From Escherichia phage CY1_Cui-2023, in the sequence record OQ357823.1: 43,449 nt of DNA; one strand, given 5' to 3'. Shown here piece after piece: positions 4,615 through 40,543 of the stretch. The position numbers and the translations under genes were made by a program. The notes under the pieces are model-generated. The model was not told the origin of the DNA, searched no databases, and was given only the letters and a program-made list of their open reading frames with translations. Every line of letters starts with the position of its first letter. Within the stretch, counting starts at the first letter, position 1.

Positions 4615-4682
4615 TTTCTTATTCCTTAGAATGTGCATTTCGTTTCGATGGAGTAATCATACCTCAACTGTGAGTTTTGTCT

Positions 4683-4943
4683 TTAGCAATTAATGCTATT
4701 CAACCACCTGTTATATTTATCCTTCTCATTGATTGCCTTTTCCAGTGACTTGAATCTTAAAAGTAGTGGCATGCAGTCAACACTCATAGTTAAGGATTCG
4801 TCGCAGCTATTTGAACCAGTCAGCCAAAGTGAGAAGTACTGTTGTTCGAGGCCGTAGTTCCTGTCTTTATTGACTCTAACGCTAACAACTTTGAATTTCA
4901 AACCTGCCAACTTAACCTTATCTATAAATTCTGACTTATTCAT
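4683..4943 (-). CDS. hypothetical protein, 86 aa
   Basis: ORF with AAGGAG SD 7 nt upstream of ATG 4943. Confidence 0.5.
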   Translation of the reverse strand: MNKSEFIDKVKLAGLKFKVVSVRVNKDRNYGLEQQYFSLWLTGSNSCDESLTMSVDCMPLLLRFKSLEKAINEKDKYNRWLNSINC

Positions 4944-5683: not shown

Positions 5684-5782
5684 CTCTCTTCTGGTTTTTT
5701 CATGGCTCAAATCTGAGCCATCACTTTGGTTCCCAGCCTGAAATTTAGGTTGGATGACAGCACCATTGCCGCCACGCGCCTA

Positions 5783-5825
5783 AATATACCTAAAGATAGC
5801 CAGTTGTCTTTAGCAAATCGTGCTA
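5783..5825 (-). promoter_or_regulatory. dyad-operator promoter (TAGCA-cgatt-TGCTA) with -10 TATATT, for the Rha-like gene
   Basis: Dyad 5811-5825 read on minus strand; TATATT exactly 30 bp downstream (5788-5783). Confidence 0.5.
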
Positions 5826-5854
5826 TTTATCGACAATTTCACCATAAATCACAG

Positions 5855-6020
5855 TTACACGTAACCGATGTAACTCGATGTATACAATCTCATCCGCGGG
5901 AAATGATATACTCGCTGTTACGCCAATTTACGCATTGGTTACATTAAAATATCTATATATATCAACCTTTTACTCTTATTATTATTATTATATATATTAC
6001 TGTGTATATCATGTAACTAC
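5855..6020. repeat. intergenic control region with GTAAC/GTTAC motif cluster plus (TA)n and (ATT)5 microsatellites
   Basis: GTTACACGTAACCGATGTAAC, GTTACGCC, GGTTAC at 5862-5945; (TA)4-5 at 5953-5961; TTATTATTATTATTA at 5977-5991; CATGTAAC at 6010-6017; lies between divergent genes. Confidence 0.6.
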
Positions 6021-6313
6021 TTCTATAGAGTGTTCCGGTTATAATTTTAATATCATGTGGATTTATACAGTATTGCGCGGCAGCTATACCAATGCACCCT
6101 CAGCGAGAAACGGCATACACGATATACACGATGTTTACATTGAGCTATGGCTGGCTTGAGATGCCAAAAAGCGTAACTAGTGCCAATGCCTACACGAAAT
6201 TACAAAGATTCACGCGTAAACTTAAATCAACGATTGGCAAAACCAATTGGACTGGTTACGGTGCTGAATATATAGTTACCTCATCGAAAGCAATCAACCA
6301 GAGAGATATATAA

Positions 6314-7521: not shown

Positions 7522-7550
7522 TATCCAATCAACAACGAACGAGGTTAAAG

Positions 7551-10187: not shown

Positions 10188-10252
10188 TGTAAAGTCTCCG
10201 TTTGTAAAATAGCACTAATTGATAAAATTCATTCTACCATCTTTCAGGCAAT

Positions 10253-11236: not shown

Positions 11237-11719
11237 TCATTCAGATCTTTCTTTAGCTTTTCGTGCGGCTTCGTTGGCAATCTTATTCTTTCGCCATGGT
11301 CGACAGGGTGGCTTTGTTGCTAGTTCTGCATCGGTAACTACGCGAAGCATATGGCGCTTCTTGCATCGAAGTGTTAGCGGTTTTCCGTTTCCGTCGAATT
11401 GCAGGTCTGGTCGGCAGAATGTAGCTCGAAATCCCTCCTTATTTCGCTTGTACGCATTATGTGCTCGCTGAGCCCCTCGAGCCGAAATCATACCGCGGTT
11501 AAACCATTCCGATACAGCTTGGTTGGACACATTTAACTGCTTTGCGATGTTCGCCTTTGTACCGTAGAAATCAAGAACCATCTCCAGGCGAGCACGTAGC
11601 CCAGCCTTTACCTCATCTTTCAATACGTAGTAGCCTGATGGTCGTTTGCGTTGCTTTTTGTCTTTTGTGCGCACGGTTCCGTTATTGCCGTTAATAGTTC
11701 GCTTGTCGATTTCACACAT
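11237..11719 (-). CDS. putative HTH DNA-binding protein (Cro/YdaS-like), 160 aa
   Basis: Segment KQLNVSNQAVSEWFNRG resembles a helix-turn-helix recognition helix; basic N-terminus. Confidence 0.45.
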   Translation of the reverse strand: MCEIDKRTINGNNGTVRTKDKKQRKRPSGYYVLKDEVKAGLRARLEMVLDFYGTKANIAKQLNVSNQAVSEWFNRGMISARGAQRAHNAYKRNKEGFRATFCRPDLQFDGNGKPLTLRCKKRHMLRVVTDAELATKPPCRPWRKNKIANEAARKAKERSE

Positions 11720-11732
11720 CTCATTACCTCAA

Positions 11733-11774
11733 TAGCACTTTTTGTTAAACAATGGGTTCGATGGCTGTTATTAT
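11733..11774 (+). promoter_or_regulatory. dyad-operator promoter (TAGCA-ctttt-TGTTA) with -10 TATTAT, for helicase gene
   Basis: Dyad 11733-11747; -10-like hexamer 11769-11774. Confidence 0.5.
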
Positions 11775-11815
11775 ACATCAATGCAACGAACTAAAGAACT
11801 ATCAGGATATTTAAA

Positions 11816-13810: not shown

Positions 13811-14226
13811 AAGTTACAGACAAAACTGACTACCTCGAGTTCTATGGCGGCCCGGTGAAGTCATGCCCGAAGGAAGACGAAGAACAAATCTTTTGCTCTG
13901 ATTGGGTTAAGTATAACTATCCGCAGGTTGTTTACTGGCACACAGTTAATGAATCAATGAAGAGCATTGGTCAGGCAAGGAAAGACCAGGCTAAAGGACT
14001 TCTTAAAGGCGTATCAGACTGCCTATTTCTAATACCTGAGTCATTACGAGGAAGTTATCCATTTGGCGCAATAGAGCTAAAGAGGGCTGGGAAAACACAG
14101 GCTAGCCCAGTAAGTGATGAGCAAAAGTCATTCCTAAAAAGCGTAAGGGAATCAGGCGGTTTCGCAGGAGTTGCCTACGGCAGAGATGGTTTTCTTGCTG
14201 CATTCGCAGAGATGATTAGAAAATAG
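13807..14226 (+). CDS. VRR-NUC domain nuclease
   Basis: DCLFL...IELKRAGK...QKSFLKSVRESGGFAGVAYG matches the VRR-NUC PD-(D/E)XK pattern; ATGA overlap with helicase stop. Confidence 0.7.
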   Translation: MKVTDKTDYLEFYGGPVKSCPKEDEEQIFCSDWVKYNYPQVVYWHTVNESMKSIGQARKDQAKGLLKGVSDCLFLIPESLRGSYPFGAIELKRAGKTQASPVSDEQKSFLKSVRESGGFAGVAYGRDGFLAAFAEMIRK

Positions 14227-14266
14227 CACGAATTGCTAAAGACGAATTGATGAAGTGGTGTATTAT
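14224..14266 (+). promoter_or_regulatory. dyad-operator promoter (TAGCA-cgaat-TGCTA) with -10 TATTAT
   Basis: Dyad 14224-14238 overlaps the TAG stop of the VRR-NUC gene; -10 at 14261-14266; leader ATCGAAACGAAAC. Confidence 0.55.
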
Positions 14267-14304
14267 CACTTCATCGAAACGAAACACACGAAGAGAGAAA
14301 GAAA

Positions 14305-14505
14305 ATGGCTACTATCTATACTGGAAAATTCTACGAATCACGCAAGACCGGTTACCAATACTCACTTGCTATCACAGATGATGGTTATATTCTTATTGAT
14401 GTTGAAGATGTTAACTACGCATTTGAAGTCAGCCCAACTTACAAAGACGATTTAGAAACTGTTAAAAACGCGTTTGGCGAGAAATTTGATGAGGTATCTG
14501 AGTAA
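14305..14505 (+). CDS. hypothetical small acidic protein, 66 aa
   Basis: ORF with purine-rich SD; acidic composition. Confidence 0.5.
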   Translation: MATIYTGKFYESRKTGYQYSLAITDDGYILIDVEDVNYAFEVSPTYKDDLETVKNAFGEKFDEVSE

Positions 14506-16563: not shown

Positions 16564-16606
16564 TAGCACTTTTTGTTAAGAAATCCCAGAGAAATCTGGG
16601 TATATT
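16564..16606 (+). promoter_or_regulatory. dyad-operator promoter (TAGCA-ctttt-TGTTA) with -10 TATATT
   Basis: Dyad 16564-16578; hairpin CCCAGAGAAATCTGGG in the spacer; -10 16601-16606; leader AATCAAACACAAACGAGATGG. Confidence 0.55.
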
Positions 16607-17234: not shown

Positions 17235-17789
17235 ATGAAAAAGTTAATCATCCTTAATGGACCCCCAGGTGCTGGAAAAGATACAGTTGCAGATATCATT
17301 GTTAAACTTGGAATTTGCAAGGATAAGGTTTCTTTCAAATCACCTATGTTTAATGTGGCTAAGAGCATGCTATCAAGCGATGAGTTTGATGGATTTATTA
17401 AGAATTACGATGATCGAGAGTACAAAGAATCACCACATGAATTTCTTGGTGGAATGACTGTTCGTCAATTTATGATTTGGATTAGCGAATCAGTGATGAA
17501 GCCAGTTTTTGGTGATGAGGTTTTCGGTAAAAGGCTAGCTCAGTCTCTTGGCAATGGTTGCCACATCTGTTCAGATGGTGGATTTGCAAGTGAAATTGAG
17601 CCACTAATTGAAAGTGGTGTTGAGGTTACATTGGTTAGGCTTCATAGACCTGGTTACACTTTCGAAGGAGATAGTAGGTCATACATTAGCGGCCTCTGCG
17701 CAAGGGAAATTGATATTGATGTTATTGAAGGTGATATTAAAATAACTACAGAAAAAGTGATTGATGCAATAAATAGCACGAATCGCTAA
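17235..17789 (+). CDS. deoxynucleoside monophosphate kinase (T4 gp1-like P-loop kinase)
   Basis: N-terminus KKLIILNGPPGAGKDTVADII and internal VTLVRLHRPG parallel T4 dNMP kinase. Confidence 0.6.
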   Translation: MKKLIILNGPPGAGKDTVADIIVKLGICKDKVSFKSPMFNVAKSMLSSDEFDGFIKNYDDREYKESPHEFLGGMTVRQFMIWISESVMKPVFGDEVFGKRLAQSLGNGCHICSDGGFASEIEPLIESGVEVTLVRLHRPGYTFEGDSRSYISGLCAREIDIDVIEGDIKITTEKVIDAINSTNR

Positions 17790-17816: not shown

Positions 17817-17847
17817 CACCAAATCGAAAACAACAGAGGATTCAAAA

Positions 17848-21758: not shown

Positions 21759-21790
21759 GATTACTTGTTCTCTTTCGTTTCGATGAGGAA

Positions 21791-21833
21791 ACTATACAAC
21801 AAAAGCCCCGAAGGGCTTTAGCAATTCGTGCTA
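21791..21833 (-). promoter_or_regulatory. dyad-operator promoter (TAGCA-cgaat-TGCTA) with -10 TATAGT and a terminator-like hairpin in the spacer
   Basis: Dyad 21819-21833; hairpin AGCCC-CGAA-GGGCT 21804-21817; TATAGT (reverse complement of 21791-21796); leader CATCGAAACGAAAGAGAAC before ATG 21758. Confidence 0.5.
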
Positions 21834-22572: not shown

Positions 22573-22599
22573 ATCTCTCTCCTCGTTGTTGATGGATTC

Positions 22600-23767: not shown

Positions 23768-24250
23768 ATGAATATCGCCAGGCAAGATGGACTTTCGCCA
23801 GTCAGAATCGTAATAAATGCAAATGGGTATCGTCAGTCAACGCCATTCTGGGGTTCGATTGATACGTCAGATGTGTACTCAGGTGATGAGCTTGGTGTGC
23901 TAATTAAAATCATCAGGAAGATGGGAGTTAACGGGAAAGGAGTGGTTGGTGTCAGGTCTGTATATGAAGGAGCTCGAAAGGTTAAGCCTTTTGTTGGGCG
24001 TAATGGAGTGATGTTGCTCATCAAGGACAAGCTAATCCCAGAGCTCGACAAGATGAATGTTACATGTCTAATTGGCGATAAGGTTTATGTTCACCCCGCA
24101 ATACTAAATGAGTGTTTGGAGCCTAACTTCAAGGTCTACGAAGGTAAGCATCCTAGTAGACTACCATACCACTTGCGGTACAGCGAGGAAGAGGTTGAGG
24201 CGGCGATGGAGTTTTATCGGGAAGCTAAATTACTCCTGAATGGACAATAG
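23768..24250 (+). CDS. mini-paralog of the 527-aa P-loop protein (N- plus C-terminal segments only); upstream in-frame ATG 23726 is cut off by an amber codon
   Basis: Residues align with the N-terminus (RVAINANGYRQS) and C-terminus (GKGVVGVRS..ARKVKPF...TCLIGDK.Y) of the 19584-21167 product; the reading frame is continuous from ATG 23726 except for TAG at 23759-23761. Confidence 0.45.
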   Translation: MNIARQDGLSPVRIVINANGYRQSTPFWGSIDTSDVYSGDELGVLIKIIRKMGVNGKGVVGVRSVYEGARKVKPFVGRNGVMLLIKDKLIPELDKMNVTCLIGDKVYVHPAILNECLEPNFKVYEGKHPSRLPYHLRYSEEEVEAAMEFYREAKLLLNGQ

Positions 24251-24290: not shown

Positions 24291-24321
24291 TACCACATCG
24301 ACAACACGATGGAGTATAGAG

Positions 24322-25029: not shown

Positions 25030-25180
25030 CACATGTTTATTCCCGAAATGTGATGAATTTGTTGAGGATTTAATCTACTTCAATGAGAAATACGGTGACA
25101 CGTTTGAGTGCGATGGCGATACAGACGAAGTATTAGCAACTTTTGATAGAGGGCCAGATGTAGACAGCACGAATAGCTAA
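25022..25180 (+). CDS. hypothetical small Cys-containing protein, 52 aa, GTG start (tentative)
   Basis: GTG 25022 preceded by GAGGAT SD; ends DSTNS-stop inside the dyad operator like several other genes; overlaps previous ORF in another frame. Confidence 0.25.
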   Translation: MLNTCLFPKCDEFVEDLIYFNEKYGDTFECDGDTDEVLATFDRGPDVDSTNS

Positions 25181-25207: not shown

Positions 25208-25236
25208 CAACCAATCAAACAACGAGAGGGCAGAAA

Positions 25237-25901: not shown

Positions 25902-25977
25902 GTTCTGCTGGCGTAACAGGATAACGCAAAGACCTCCTAAGTCTTAGTTGCTGGTTCGAGTCCAGCGCGGAACACCA
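25902..25977 (+). tRNA. tRNA-Arg (anticodon CCU)
   Basis: Hand-folded cloverleaf: acceptor GTTCTGC/GCGGAAC (one G-U), D-arm GCGT-AACAGGATA-ACGC, anticodon arm AAGAC-CTCCTAA-GTCTT (CCT at 25936-25938), T-arm GCTGG-TTCGAGT-CCAGC, discriminator A plus encoded CCA; 76 nt. Confidence 0.8.
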
Positions 25978-32991: not shown

Positions 32992-33034
32992 TAGCACTAA
33001 ATGACAAAACAATACCACCGAAAGGTGGTATTTT
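32992..33034 (+). promoter_or_regulatory. degenerate dyad operator (TAGCA-ctaaa-TGACA) with terminator hairpin in spacer, upstream of second HNH gene
   Basis: Dyad 32992-33006 right after capsid stop; hairpin ACCACC-GAAA-GGTGGT plus TTTTT 33013-33035; weak -10 TATTTT 33029-33034; leader CATCAAAACAATGGAGG. Confidence 0.35.
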
Positions 33035-33062
33035 TGTTTCCATCAAAACAATGGAGGCGAAA

Positions 33063-36422: not shown

Positions 36423-36461
36423 TACTTTATCGAAACGAGATGGATTATAGAGGTAAACAAA

Positions 36462-37570: not shown

Positions 37571-40543
37571 ATGGCAACTAACGAAATTGCTGGTATCACG
37601 CTAGCCGTCGACGTCGCTCAGGTCGATAAGGGTACGCAATCATTACAGAAATTCAGGCAAGCAAACGAGCAAGCTGCAACGGGAATCAATAGCTTCATCA
37701 ACGCCGAGCTTGTAGCCAAGACTCAAGCAAGGGACACTGCAAGGCAGCTTGAGGAACAGCGCAAATCTTTCGCATCACTTCAGAAAGCCATAGACCCAAC
37801 TGCCGCTAAATTCCAGAAGTTGCAGAAGGCAGCAACTGAATTAGACAAAGCATTTGAATCTGGGATAGTTCCTGATGAAGAATTCTTCAGGCTTGGCTCT
37901 GTTATTGAAACTCAAATCAATAAGCTCAACAGGTCTAAAGCTGCTCTTAGCGAGGAAGGTCGGGCTGCACTCCAGGCATCAATAGACAAAGAAAAGGCAA
38001 CAGCAGCGGCGCAAAAGTTCATTCAATCTCTTGAGAACGAGGCGAATGCAGCAAGCCTTACAAGGACTGAACTGCTTCAGCTTAAGGCTGCTCAGCTAGG
38101 GGTTAGTGACCAAGCTGCGCCTATTATCGACAGGATTGGTAAGGCTGCCGAGGCATCTGCTGTTCAGTTGCAGAAGCAGAGTTCCGCTTTTCTTAAGTCA
38201 GGTTTAAGCGCCGGTCAGTACAAGCAAGCGATTCGCCAGCTACCCGCTCAGATTACAGATATCGGAACTTCCCTTGCTAGCGGCATGCCAGTCTGGCTTG
38301 TTGCAATCCAACAGGGTGGGCAGATTAAGGATAGTTTTGGCGGTATTGGAAATACAGCAAGGTTTGCACTGGCAGCCATTAACCCATTAACAGCAGTTGT
38401 TGGGACTCTAGGCCTGGCTCTTGGCGCTTTGGGTGTTGCGGCTTATCAGGCCGATAAGAATGCTCGAGGACTAGCATCTACGATAACGTTGGTTGGCAAC
38501 TCAACTATCACGTCTACAGCGCAGATAAATCAGGTTGTTGATGGAATTGAGAGATCAACACTAGCTACTCGCGGACTTATTCAGGAAATAGCCAATAGCC
38601 TTGTGGCAAACGGAAACCTAACTCTTACGCAGATAGACAAGATAACTAAGGCAACAGCGCAGTGGGCGGCAGTAACATCAACCGATTCAAAGACCATTCT
38701 CGGGTACTTTGACCAAATTACAAAAGACCCTGTTAAAGGCCTTGCTGAGCTTGATAAGCAATTTAACTTCCTTCAAAGTGGGCAGTTAAAACACATAGAG
38801 AACTTAAGGAAGACAGCGGGAGAGACTGAGGCTGTAACAGCAGCTACTGAGTTATTTGCTAACGTTATGGAAAACAGGCTAGAAGATGTTGCACTAAGCC
38901 TCAATCCGCTAGAAAGTGCATGGAATAGCTTCAGGAAGTTTGTAAGTAATATTTGGGATGATATCGGCAAAAGGACACTTGGTGCTCTTAACTTAATAAC
39001 TGACGTTGTTGCTGGGACGATTGAGCAGATAAGGTCGTTCATAAACTCAGGCGACATTCTTCTTGGTGAATTTGCTATCGCTGCAACCAAGACGCTTCAG
39101 TCAATCCCGGGACTTGGCGATTTAGGCAATGAAGCAATCGCTGAGCAGCAAAAGATTGTCGATGCTGCCAAGAAGCAAAACATTGAGTTAGCTAAAAGCA
39201 TAGCTGAGCGAGACGCGAGAATCAGGAAGGGTGAACTTGGTTATGTCGAGAGCAACAATAACACTAACCTGAGCGGGAATAATGCATCAACAGATAAGGA
39301 GTTCGGAGCAAGGAAGAAAGCGCTAGCAGACGAGCTTGATGCAATAAAGAAATCGAGGAGCGAGAGGAATAAGGCAGTAAAAGAAGAAATGGATTTAACT
39401 TTATCTTATGAATCTGGTGTTCTTGCACTTCAGGCTCAGTTAAAGGCTTTGCAAGAGCATAGGACGATAAATGATGTAATAAGTAACGAACGAAAGCAGC
39501 TATTCCAGGAAGAAGCTAAGTTTGCAATACTTGAACAAAGATATGCTGATGGTAGCCTGACTAAGTCTCAAGCCAAACTGCTAGCGCAGAAGGATATCAT
39601 TCTTGAGCAAGCTAAACAGAAGGCTGAACTTGGTGACCGAATCGTTCTTCAGGAGCGGTCAAACAAGTTACTTGATGACAACCTTAAGAAGACAATACAG
39701 ATTACCAATGAGGCGAAGAATGTTTCACTTGCTGCTGGTCTATCCGAAAGGGAGCGGCAAAGGGCAAGAGAACTTCAGGCGCTAGAGTCCAATCAGTTAA
39801 ACAAAGGTGGATCTGTAGATGATGTTGATTTCCAGAATCTGCTGGAAGCAAGAAAAGAATACTACAGGCAGGAAGATAACCTAAGGTCAGACTGGCAAGC
39901 TGGTGTAACTTCAACGCTTGCTGACTTAACTGAGAAGTACACTGACTTCAACCAAATTGCTAAGGATTTGACTGTCGCAGCTTTTGATGGAATTACCGAC
40001 CAGATTACAAACCTTGTAACCACTGGTGAGACTAATTTCAGGGAGTTCACGGTAAGCATCCTCAAAATGATTGCGAAGATTGCGACACAGCTTCTGATTG
40101 TTAAGGCTATTGAGTCAAGTTTGAGTAGCTTTGGTGGCACTGGCGGCGCAATTGGTTCAATTGGTAGTGCGCTTGGATTTGCTGGCGGCGGCTACACTGG
40201 TGACGGTGGGAAGTATCAACCTGCTGGAACGGTGCACAAAGGTGAATTTGTTTTCACCAAAGAAGCAACCAACAGGATTGGCGTTAAGAACCTGTACAAG
40301 CTGATGCGAGGTTATGCCAATGGTGGCGCTGTTGGTGGGCCTTCTGGCTATGCTAATGGTGGAGTTGTTGGCGGTACAAATGTTAATGTAAGCGGAATCA
40401 CTGTTAACGTGAATTCTGGAATCGGTGGCGGTAATGATGCTAAGGCGATAGAATCTGGAGTCAAGGTTATCGTGGCTGAGGAAATCAGCAAGTCATTCCA
40501 GCAGGGTGGCAGGGCCTTTGCTTTCTTGCGAGGTTATAATTAA
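37571..40543 (+). CDS. tail tape measure protein, 990 aa
   Basis: Very long Ala/Gln/Lys-rich helical ORF with C-terminal Gly-rich segment, located between chaperone and M/L/K/I genes. Confidence 0.85.
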   Translation: MATNEIAGITLAVDVAQVDKGTQSLQKFRQANEQAATGINSFINAELVAKTQARDTARQLEEQRKSFASLQKAIDPTAAKFQKLQKAATELDKAFESGIVPDEEFFRLGSVIETQINKLNRSKAALSEEGRAALQASIDKEKATAAAQKFIQSLENEANAASLTRTELLQLKAAQLGVSDQAAPIIDRIGKAAEASAVQLQKQSSAFLKSGLSAGQYKQAIRQLPAQITDIGTSLASGMPVWLVAIQQGGQIKDSFGGIGNTARFALAAINPLTAVVGTLGLALGALGVAAYQADKNARGLASTITLVGNSTITSTAQINQVVDGIERSTLATRGLIQEIANSLVANGNLTLTQIDKITKATAQWAAVTSTDSKTILGYFDQITKDPVKGLAELDKQFNFLQSGQLKHIENLRKTAGETEAVTAATELFANVMENRLEDVALSLNPLESAWNSFRKFVSNIWDDIGKRTLGALNLITDVVAGTIEQIRSFINSGDILLGEFAIAATKTLQSIPGLGDLGNEAIAEQQKIVDAAKKQNIELAKSIAERDARIRKGELGYVESNNNTNLSGNNASTDKEFGARKKALADELDAIKKSRSERNKAVKEEMDLTLSYESGVLALQAQLKALQEHRTINDVISNERKQLFQEEAKFAILEQRYADGSLTKSQAKLLAQKDIILEQAKQKAELGDRIVLQERSNKLLDDNLKKTIQITNEAKNVSLAAGLSERERQRARELQALESNQLNKGGSVDDVDFQNLLEARKEYYRQEDNLRSDWQAGVTSTLADLTEKYTDFNQIAKDLTVAAFDGITDQITNLVTTGETNFREFTVSILKMIAKIATQLLIVKAIESSLSSFGGTGGAIGSIGSALGFAGGGYTGDGGKYQPAGTVHKGEFVFTKEATNRIGVKNLYKLMRGYANGGAVGGPSGYANGGVVGGTNVNVSGITVNVNSGIGGGNDAKAIESGVKVIVAEEISKSFQQGGRAFAFLRGYN

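Follow-up and report, generated by a model that had tools for sequence, protein, structure and literature searches.

A conserved block at the predicted transcription start of the repeat-linked promoters of a T1-like Escherichia coli phage

The window considered here is the whole stretch of 43,449 nucleotides (nt) of Escherichia phage CY1_Cui-2023 (OQ357823.1), and our subject is a short block of the ATCGAAAC type which lies a few bases downstream of the -10 hexamer of many of its promoters, at the predicted 5' end of their leaders. This 43.4-kb window covers nearly all of the genome of a T1-like siphophage of E. coli (Drexlerviridae, Braunvirinae). An 8-kb query taken from it has 99.8% identity to Escherichia phage TR2 and 76-86% identity to Rtp-like, Guelphvirus and other Braunvirinae (Drexlerviridae) phages. 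Rtp, ACG-M12 and EC3a, themselves Braunvirinae, are among its relatives. The promoter with predicted start at 14273 serves as the example, and its parts are as follows.

14223-14240, plus strand: upstream element of the promoter, ATAGCACGAATTGCTAAA (-50..-33), one of the copies of the 21-nt direct repeat known from published work on T1, TLS and Rtp
14241-14260, plus strand: spacer of 20 nt, variable in sequence and without a -35 hexamer; towards its 3' end it contributes the 5' arm of a hairpin
14261-14266, plus strand: -10 hexamer TATTAT
14267-14272, plus strand: discriminator cacttc, G-free and pyrimidine-rich, with C at -1
14273-14285, plus strand: predicted +1 A and initially transcribed block ATCGAAACGAAAC
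14286-14304, plus strand: remainder of the 32-nt leader (ACACGAAGAGAGAAAGAAA) with a GA-rich Shine-Dalgarno region
14305-14505, plus strand: open reading frame (ORF) of 66 amino acids with start codon ATG 14305 and no Pfam match

Units of this kind were defined by the upstream element and a -10-like hexamer alone, leaving the leader sequence unused, and 17 were found in the window. Their layout is ATAGCAC-N5-GNTAAA, 20 nt, TAnnnT, 6 nt and then the block; the distance from element to hexamer is 20 nt in 15 units, 19 nt in one and 21 nt in another. The same cassette is found in T1, TLS and Rtp. A family set of 291 unique units was assembled from these three phages and 120 IMG/VR loci, again with the leader unused in selection; the pattern scan that returned the 120 loci specified just the upstream element plus the A and T of the -10. 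In the -10-anchored family matrix the element covers -52..-31, with its centre near -42. The hexamer reads T82 A100 T75 A64 A52 T100 (%), where the two values of 100% are imposed, since A2 and T6 were fixed by selection. G-14 (78%) and T-15 (45%) form a partial extended -10, and the discriminator is C-rich. Judged as a sigma-70 promoter, the example unit has the -10 (TATTAT) and, by sequence, a fitting start context (C-1/A+1 at the seventh position), and lacks the -35: no TTGACA-like hexamer lies 16-18 nt from the -10, where -35..-30 reads AAAac(n), and the TTG of the element, at 22 nt, is outside the -35 spacing. A scan of the window for consensus -35/-10 pairs gave no enrichment (55 against 42.5 +/- 6.2) and misses these units.

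The upstream elements of the window correspond to a repeat that has been published in part. Kropinski and co-workers (PMC11447400) described the 21-nt direct repeat aaATAGCACnnnTTGnTAAAA in TLS, T1, Rtp and Rogue1, left its function open (stoperator, enhancer or UP-element) and listed three canonical promoters only; the fixed 20-nt distance to a -10 and the conserved start and leader are not reported there. The window's copies have the same orientation and stand about 76-82 nt before the start codon (82 nt from ATG 14305 for the copy at 14223-14240). By its position the element would occupy the place of an activator site or of a -35 substitute, read by a putative factor. The weakly Cro-like helix-turn-helix (HTH) gene 11237-11719(-), with the homologues gp23 in T1 and Rtp52 in Rtp, is no more than a candidate for such a factor. 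An earlier note on this sequence had spoken of operator promoters with a dyad; the operator role is unproven, and the upstream element is asymmetric, with ATAGCAC invariant and the right half degenerate.

The block recurs in the window at the following places.

4638-4649, minus strand: block ATCGAAACGAAA at +1, unit with element 4683-4698(-)
7528-7539, plus strand: block ATCAACAACGAA at +1, upstream of the Erf-type recombinase gene
17823-17834, plus strand: block ATCGAAAACAAC at +1
21773-21784, minus strand: block ATCGAAACGAAA at +1, terminator hairpin inside the promoter spacer
22582-22593, minus strand: block ATCAACAACGAG at +1, unit with the 21-nt spacer
24297-24308, plus strand: block ATCGACAACACG at +1
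25214-25225, plus strand: block ATCAAACAACGA at +1
36429-36440, plus strand: block ATCGAAACGAGA at +1, TTTTT-class upstream element
33042-33053, plus strand: ATCAAAACAATG, shifted by one base (eighth position after TATTTT), terminator in the spacer
6283-6294, plus strand: ATCGAAAGCAAT 7 nt after TATAGT, canonical TTGGAC-18-TATAGT promoter without an ATAGCAC element
11751-11762, minus strand: ATCGAACCCATT after TATAAT (11775-11770), in front of the gene of the Cro-like HTH regulator, on a strand that here lacks the ATAGCAC element
4966-, 5776-, 11219-, 11781+, 16613+, 21191-, 26870+: seven units with other starts

All eight blocks quoted in the earlier note are present where it placed them, on the strands it gave; its list is right as far as it goes and missed those at 4649(-), 33042(+), 6283(+) and 11762(-). 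Its central claim, that conservation extends past the -10 into the transcribed region, also stands, and the conservation is position-specific. ATC falls exactly at bases 7-9 after the -10 (+1..+3) in 9 of the 17 units (binomial p = 2.6e-12). Exact ATCGAAAC is found at +1 in four units, that is, four of the six exact copies on both window strands. When one mismatch is allowed, this 8-mer shows no enrichment across the window (44 matches, with 36 +/- 6 expected), so the signal is positional. The information content at +1..+12 amounts to 5.98 bits over the 17 units, against 1.43 +/- 0.34 bits at random positions, 1.38 +/- 0.31 bits at other gene starts anchored at ATG-26, and 3.77 +/- 0.32 bits (maximum 5.15) after shuffling within blocks; because the observed value exceeds all three controls, both the A/C-rich composition and the order of the bases are non-random. 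The description of the block as purine-rich has to be corrected. At +4..+12 the composition is A 56%, C 20%, G 18% and T 6%, that is, rather A/C-rich and T-poor. The length of the block varies by small indels between units (ATCGAAAC, ATCAACAAC, ATCAAACAAC), and the block is common to promoters of the replication, lysis and structural gene regions.

Is the block a property of the promoter or of the gene that follows it? In the family matrix the start reads C-1 66%, A+1 80%, T+2 50%, C+3 46% and G+4 45%, followed by 60-68% A at +5..+7, and the A-richness continues to about +12. In units with short leaders C-1 reaches 84% and A+1 92%, exactly 7 nt after the -10. By far the commonest 8-mer at +1 is ATCGAAAC (43/291), and the commonest triplet is ATC (93/291). 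The leader has a modal length of 25-26 nt and measures 24-27 nt in 58% of the family units. Where it is 28-45 nt long, ATCGAAAC is still at +1 in 28% and A+1 in 80% of cases, and the block is anchored to the -10 and not to the start codon. Pairs of promoters with unrelated spacers and unrelated downstream genes still share 41% identity at +1..+8, compared with 26-28% in the flanks, which argues that the likeness is not a leftover of recent duplication of whole cassettes.

The same start is also found at promoters that have no ATAGCAC element. These are the TTGGAC-18-TATAGT promoter at 6248-6276 (ATCGAAAG at 6283), the promoter of the Cro-like regulator gene (TATAAT, 7 nt, ATCGAACC at 11762, minus strand), and the element-less promoters of Rtp genes 19 and 28. 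For orthologous genes, the window units were aligned with four whole Braunvirinae genomes (Rtp, phiA2-1, OzMSK and EC3a), and the presence or absence of the promoter was judged by eye from the alignments, since an automatic regular expression misread variant elements. The block is kept in 15 of 16 orthologues that keep the promoter, while a leader of ATC(G/A)A type was seen in 1 of 10 orthologues without it (Fisher p = 3e-5). In the 14273 unit ATCGAAACGA is invariant across 11 orthologous variants whose spacers and discriminators differ, and at 4649(-) tactccATCGAAACGAAA is kept in three relatives while spacer, hexamer and distal leader diverge. IMG/VR fragments gave a mild difference (identity 0.90 in the block and 0.80 in the spacer, over 69 orthologous pairs only); BLAST of the window units against these fragments returned few spanning matches. 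Judged from the alignments, the block is real and under purifying selection. Since it is anchored to the -10, present at element-less promoters, and gained and lost together with the promoter, by the same evidence it is part of the promoter and start module and does not belong to the ribosome-binding sites of genes.

Whole cassettes are present or absent before orthologous genes of phages that are 76-90% identical, as at 7528+, 17823+, 21784-, 22593- and 25214+. This distribution suggests that cassettes are frequently gained, lost or transferred.

The composition of the leader leads to the same separation from ribosome-binding sites. At ATG-26..-15 the genes led by these promoters have A 49%, C 29%, G 7% and T 15%, whereas 49 other gene starts are at background. 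Because of this difference the block is not a generic Shine-Dalgarno context, and the explanation by an A-rich context of that kind, named in the earlier note as what would refute its claim, fails.

We consider it probable that the block is the transcription start site together with an initially transcribed sequence optimised for promoter escape, doubling as the unstructured 5' end of a minimal leader. In the sequence of events that we infer, the host sigma-70 RNA polymerase would bind the near-consensus, often extended -10, aided by a putative reader of the ATAGCAC...TAAA element (centre near -42) in place of the -35 hexamer. Initiation would take place at the A following C, 7 nt past the -10 in the classical C-A-T start. 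The polymerase would then pass through an A-rich, T-poor stretch free of stalling T and of pyrimidine-G (YG) steps around +5..+7, and its escape would be fast. The same A/C-rich, G/U-poor RNA could hardly fold, and the ribosome-binding site of the 5'-proximal gene would stay open behind a very short leader of about 26 nt whose 5' end is the block.

What the sequences establish is the architecture with its statistics, its spread through the family and its joint occurrence with the promoter; the start site, the polymerase and factor at work, and the effects on escape and translation are deduced from them. The classical start context of sigma-70 promoters has C-1/A+1/T+2 at the seventh base after the -10, and because the block matches it we take the A of ATC as the predicted +1. 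Among the 234 family units with a nearby start codon, T makes up 2-10% of positions +4..+12 compared with a background of 27%, and YG at +5/6, +6/7 and +7/8 occurs in 0-1% compared with 11%. In the 262,144 variants of Heyduk & Heyduk 2018 (PMC5961368) slow escape accompanies T's in the first ~7 bp, the effect of TG on escape is maximal at +5/+6, and stronger base stacking accompanies fast escape; the depletion of T and YG in the phage family appears to match these rules. For the leader, the opening energy of the ribosome-binding region is 4.1 kcal/mol for promoter-led genes against 6.2 kcal/mol for the others (p = 0.07), and its minimum free energy (MFE) is -3.5 against -6.1 kcal/mol (p = 0.06), a weak trend compatible with a passive 'open leader' role.

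Several points weigh against this interpretation. The literature searched for T1-like phages gave no start-site, 5'-end or transcriptome data, and for this reason the +1 is a prediction. Other starts serve 7 of the 17 units, and the block is therefore not obligatory. YG (mostly CG) is enriched at +3/4 (44%) and +8/9 (32%), and C+3, G+4 and the 5-nt periodic CGAAACGAAAC are not explained by start-site rules, which cover C-1/A+1/T+2. For structure around the ribosome-binding site the difference does not go beyond a trend (p = 0.06, n=11 vs 50). Anchoring to the -10 would be expected equally of a signal at the 5' terminus of the RNA, so that the DNA and RNA levels are not separated by it.

Such an RNA signal is the alternative that survives best, though we hold it unlikely and nothing observed requires it. 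The AUCGAAAC-type end and the ~26-nt leader would be read by a host or phage factor, the 30S subunit or S1, and would act as a translational enhancer, as a standby site or as a stability or identity tag of the phage mRNAs. The tightly constrained leader length is in its favour and places the whole leader within reach of the ribosome. The A/C-rich, G/U-poor composition specific to promoter-led leaders and its persistence to about +12, past the sequence-specific contacts of the polymerase, also speak for a role in RNA. Units without a nearby start codon, many of them probably chance matches, lack the signature (ATC 7%, T 26%), and the block is missing from the unit 5776(-), whose leader is long and structured. 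On the other side, the block is anchored neither to the Shine-Dalgarno sequence nor to the ATG, and orthologous genes that lack the promoter are translated without it. Neither a structured motif nor a candidate RNA-binding protein was identified. The Rfam 15 covariance models run over the whole window gave tRNA-Arg as the sole match at gathering score, and at 14150-14400 nothing credible even at E <= 1. To our knowledge no such factor is known for T7 A1/A3, whose starts are similar, which we count against the RNA signal. A reading of the leader as (A-R-N)n for Hfq was rejected on inspection, as the repeat has a period of 5 nt, not 3, and triplets show no consistent A-R-N phasing. The block shows no obvious complementarity to 16S rRNA, a point on which no formal search was made and to which we give no weight.

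A bolder form of the same idea, which we regard as quite unlikely, takes the AUCGAAAC-type end and the ~26-nt leader as a phage-specific mRNA 'leader tag', joined in many units to a covarying hairpin ending AUC (described below). If true, a host or phage factor or a processing step would give transcripts of the T1 family privileged translation or stability, and read-through and newly initiated transcripts would share the same 5' end.

The hairpin in the example unit is the following.

14247-14277, plus strand: inverted repeat, 14247-14260 paired with 14264-14277, -17.4 kcal/mol as RNA, z = -5.9

Its loop and the bases beside it hold the -10, and ATCGA falls within the 3' arm. The stem is followed by AACGAAAC; because there is no U-tract it is not a standard intrinsic terminator, and it is absent from the list of the terminator scan. 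In general, core promoters (-34..+14) fold far better than shuffled sequences (mean MFE -11.6 vs -5.6 kcal/mol; 72% vs 21% reach <= -8). The inverted repeats of the family bracket the -10, with the 3' arm usually at -9..-1 and reaching +1..+7 in about 30% of units. In the 14273 unit compensatory and G-U changes preserve the stem in 7 of 11 orthologous variants while the block is invariant, and the G-U pairs among the maintained changes hint that it acts as RNA. The stem could serve in processing or insulation of read-through RNA, or in presentation of the -10.

All these features, from the good folding and the reach of the 3' arm to the maintained stem without U-tract, would also suit a module for processing or insulation of read-through transcripts, of which the block would be part: a hairpin bracketing the -10 and ending AUC(GA), then a single-stranded GAAAC leader. 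The hairpin would be cut or would protect 3' ends, leaving read-through and de novo transcripts with a shared leader. A promoter-less leader in Rtp (rtp49) also has a hairpin, followed by AACAAAC. We find this explanation very doubtful. Such a stem is missing from 4 of the 11 variants and from about half of the window units, and for this reason the hairpin cannot explain the conservation of the block; the hairpin is what adapts to an invariant block. Many spacer hairpins are ordinary terminators with a T-tract overlapping the -10. Stems of 9-14 bp are short for RNase III, and RNase E prefers RN|WUU, for which a U-free leader is a poor substrate; both count against processing.

A DNA operator at +1..+13 for a phage regulator such as the Cro-like HTH protein 11237-11719(-), repressing or timing the promoters, is highly improbable: the regulator gene is conserved beside the primase and helicase genes in all relatives and the block overlaps the start site, the classical position for a repressor, but the block contains no dyad or helically phased repeat (its period being 5 nt), differs from unit to unit by small indels and serves promoters of every gene class, and the strongly conserved candidate protein-binding site is the upstream element.

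Of the extra functions that the earlier note had offered for the leader, then, a defined start site is supported by C-1/A+1 exactly 7 nt after the -10, by the -10 anchoring and by joint gain and loss with the promoter. The data do not call for an RNase site, a translational enhancer or a repressor target, and neither a second motif nor a -10-like pause element was seen within the block.

How does the start module compare with known systems? At the annotated starts of T7 (NC_001604), A1 reads cATCGAGAGGG and A3 cATGAAACGACAG, and the window block reads cATCGAAACGA. The strong, well-studied sigma-70 early promoters A1 and A3 of T7 thus share with it the C-1/A+1/U+2 start, the strings ATCGA and GAAACGA, and the use of the host polymerase. 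In contrast to the cassette, T7 A1-A3 have -35 hexamers, no ATAGCAC and long leaders, and they are three promoters at one genome end, whereas about 17 cassettes are distributed along the genome here. The likeness is convergent, not homologous.

For promoters of the T5 N25 type, the initially transcribed region is described as a functional promoter part that strongly modulates productive initiation (PMC12464699; PMC5961368). They resemble the cassette in that the first ~10-20 transcribed bp belong to the promoter. The arrangement upstream finds its parallel in class II activator promoters and T4 middle promoters, where a conserved element replaces the -35 beside a good -10. The CRP site at -41.5 is combined with an extended -10, as at galP1, and the T4 MotA box replaces the -35. 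The MotA box is at -30, whereas the cassette element has its centre near -42; as compared with class II activators, its half-sites are asymmetric and its binding factor is only putative. The initially transcribed sequences of T5 differ from the block (ATAAATTTGAGAG).

A conserved initially transcribed phage sequence is also known from lambda PR', whose pause element is the -10-like AACGAT at +1..+6, and AACGA strings recur in the cassette. A lambda-type sigma-dependent pause element was nevertheless rejected: AACGAG and AACGAA lack the essential T at hexamer position 6, in keeping with the 2-10% T at +4..+12, and no Q-like antiterminator context is evident at the cassette units, unlike lambda PR'.

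Three other identities of the promoter were rejected as well. A sigma-54 promoter (TGGCAC-N5-TTGCW) does not fit, as the AG..GC separation is 8 nt instead of 10 nt for GG/GC, the TTTTT class has GT for GC, and the element lies at -50..-33 of a -10-type promoter, not at -24/-12. An UP-element does not fit either: G-47, C-46, C-44 and G-38 are invariant, and the register misfits the A/T-tract consensus. A T7-like promoter for a phage single-subunit RNA polymerase was rejected because the annotations of six relatives (T1, TLS, Rtp, phiA2-1, OzMSK and EC3a) contain no polymerase gene; no sigma gene is annotated in them either. The only window ORFs above 800 amino acids are those syntenic with tail-tip and tape-measure genes, and the TLS paper found no evidence for a phage-encoded RNA polymerase. 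Most economically, the block is not a new type of mechanism and belongs with the phage promoters whose transcribed start is part of the promoter, in an architecture of which only a part, the 21-nt repeat, had been published.

Several features of the window touch the cassette. In 8 of 17 units the preceding ORF ends at the TAG or TAA of the element; in the example unit TAG 14224-14226, inside ATAGCACGAATTGCTAAA, ends the VRR-NUC gene. Because the element supplies the stop codon, the cassette abuts or overlaps the end of the upstream gene. The positions are:

14224-14226, 17787-17789, 24248-24250, 25178-25180 and 26821-23, plus strand: element-borne stop codons
4683-85, 5000-02 and 21818-20, minus strand: element-borne stop codons

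One copy of the element, at 10210-10225 (+), has no properly spaced -10 and lies in inverse orientation within the leader of a minus-strand tail-fibre gene (ATG 10187); the same arrangement is seen at Rtp gene 50.

Intrinsic terminators are embedded in some of the 20-nt spacers with the T-tract overlapping the -10, which makes very compact terminator-promoter junctions. Among the units with true terminators inside the spacer are 21832- and 32993+. The spacer terminators listed are:

21802-21819, minus strand: spacer terminator
33000-33025, plus strand: spacer terminator
16585-16600: spacer terminator
39998-40024 of T1: spacer terminator

At 11751-11790 two back-to-back promoters share the palindromic -10 TATTATA (11769-11775), one for the helicase (+, predicted start 11781) and one for the Cro-like HTH regulator (-, predicted start ~11762), and the regulator's leader runs through the reverse complement of the ATAGCAC element of the helicase promoter. 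At 5824(-) a consensus cassette is combined with a start of another, G-rich kind (CGTGGCGGCAATGG); the leader of this unit, ~65 nt long, carries a hairpin at 5702-5721 (ATGGCTCAAATCTGAGCCAT) containing a candidate start codon, and may be regulated. The ~480-bp AT-rich non-coding region 5830-6310 has TATTATTATTATT/ATATATAT runs, several -10-like hexamers and the one canonical TTGGAC-18-TATAGT promoter, and may be an early-promoter or origin region. The tRNA-Arg gene (anticodon CCT) lies at 25902-25977 (+), as in other T1-like phages.

Few coliphages are as common as the T1-like phages, which are also notorious contaminants of laboratories and fermentations. Published annotations credit them with only a few canonical promoters and leave the 21-nt repeat standing alone. 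The repeat, the -10 at 20 nt, the C-rich discriminator and the conserved start and leader make up one cassette and provide a promoter model for the family, from which about 17 start sites are predicted for this genome at single-base resolution and which improves the annotation of transcription units. The cassettes also offer compact, probably strong promoter-leader parts for engineering in E. coli. For the biology of these phages, the block would represent a naturally occurring case, found across the family, of selection acting on an initially transcribed sequence, seen in the avoidance of T and YG at +5..+8.

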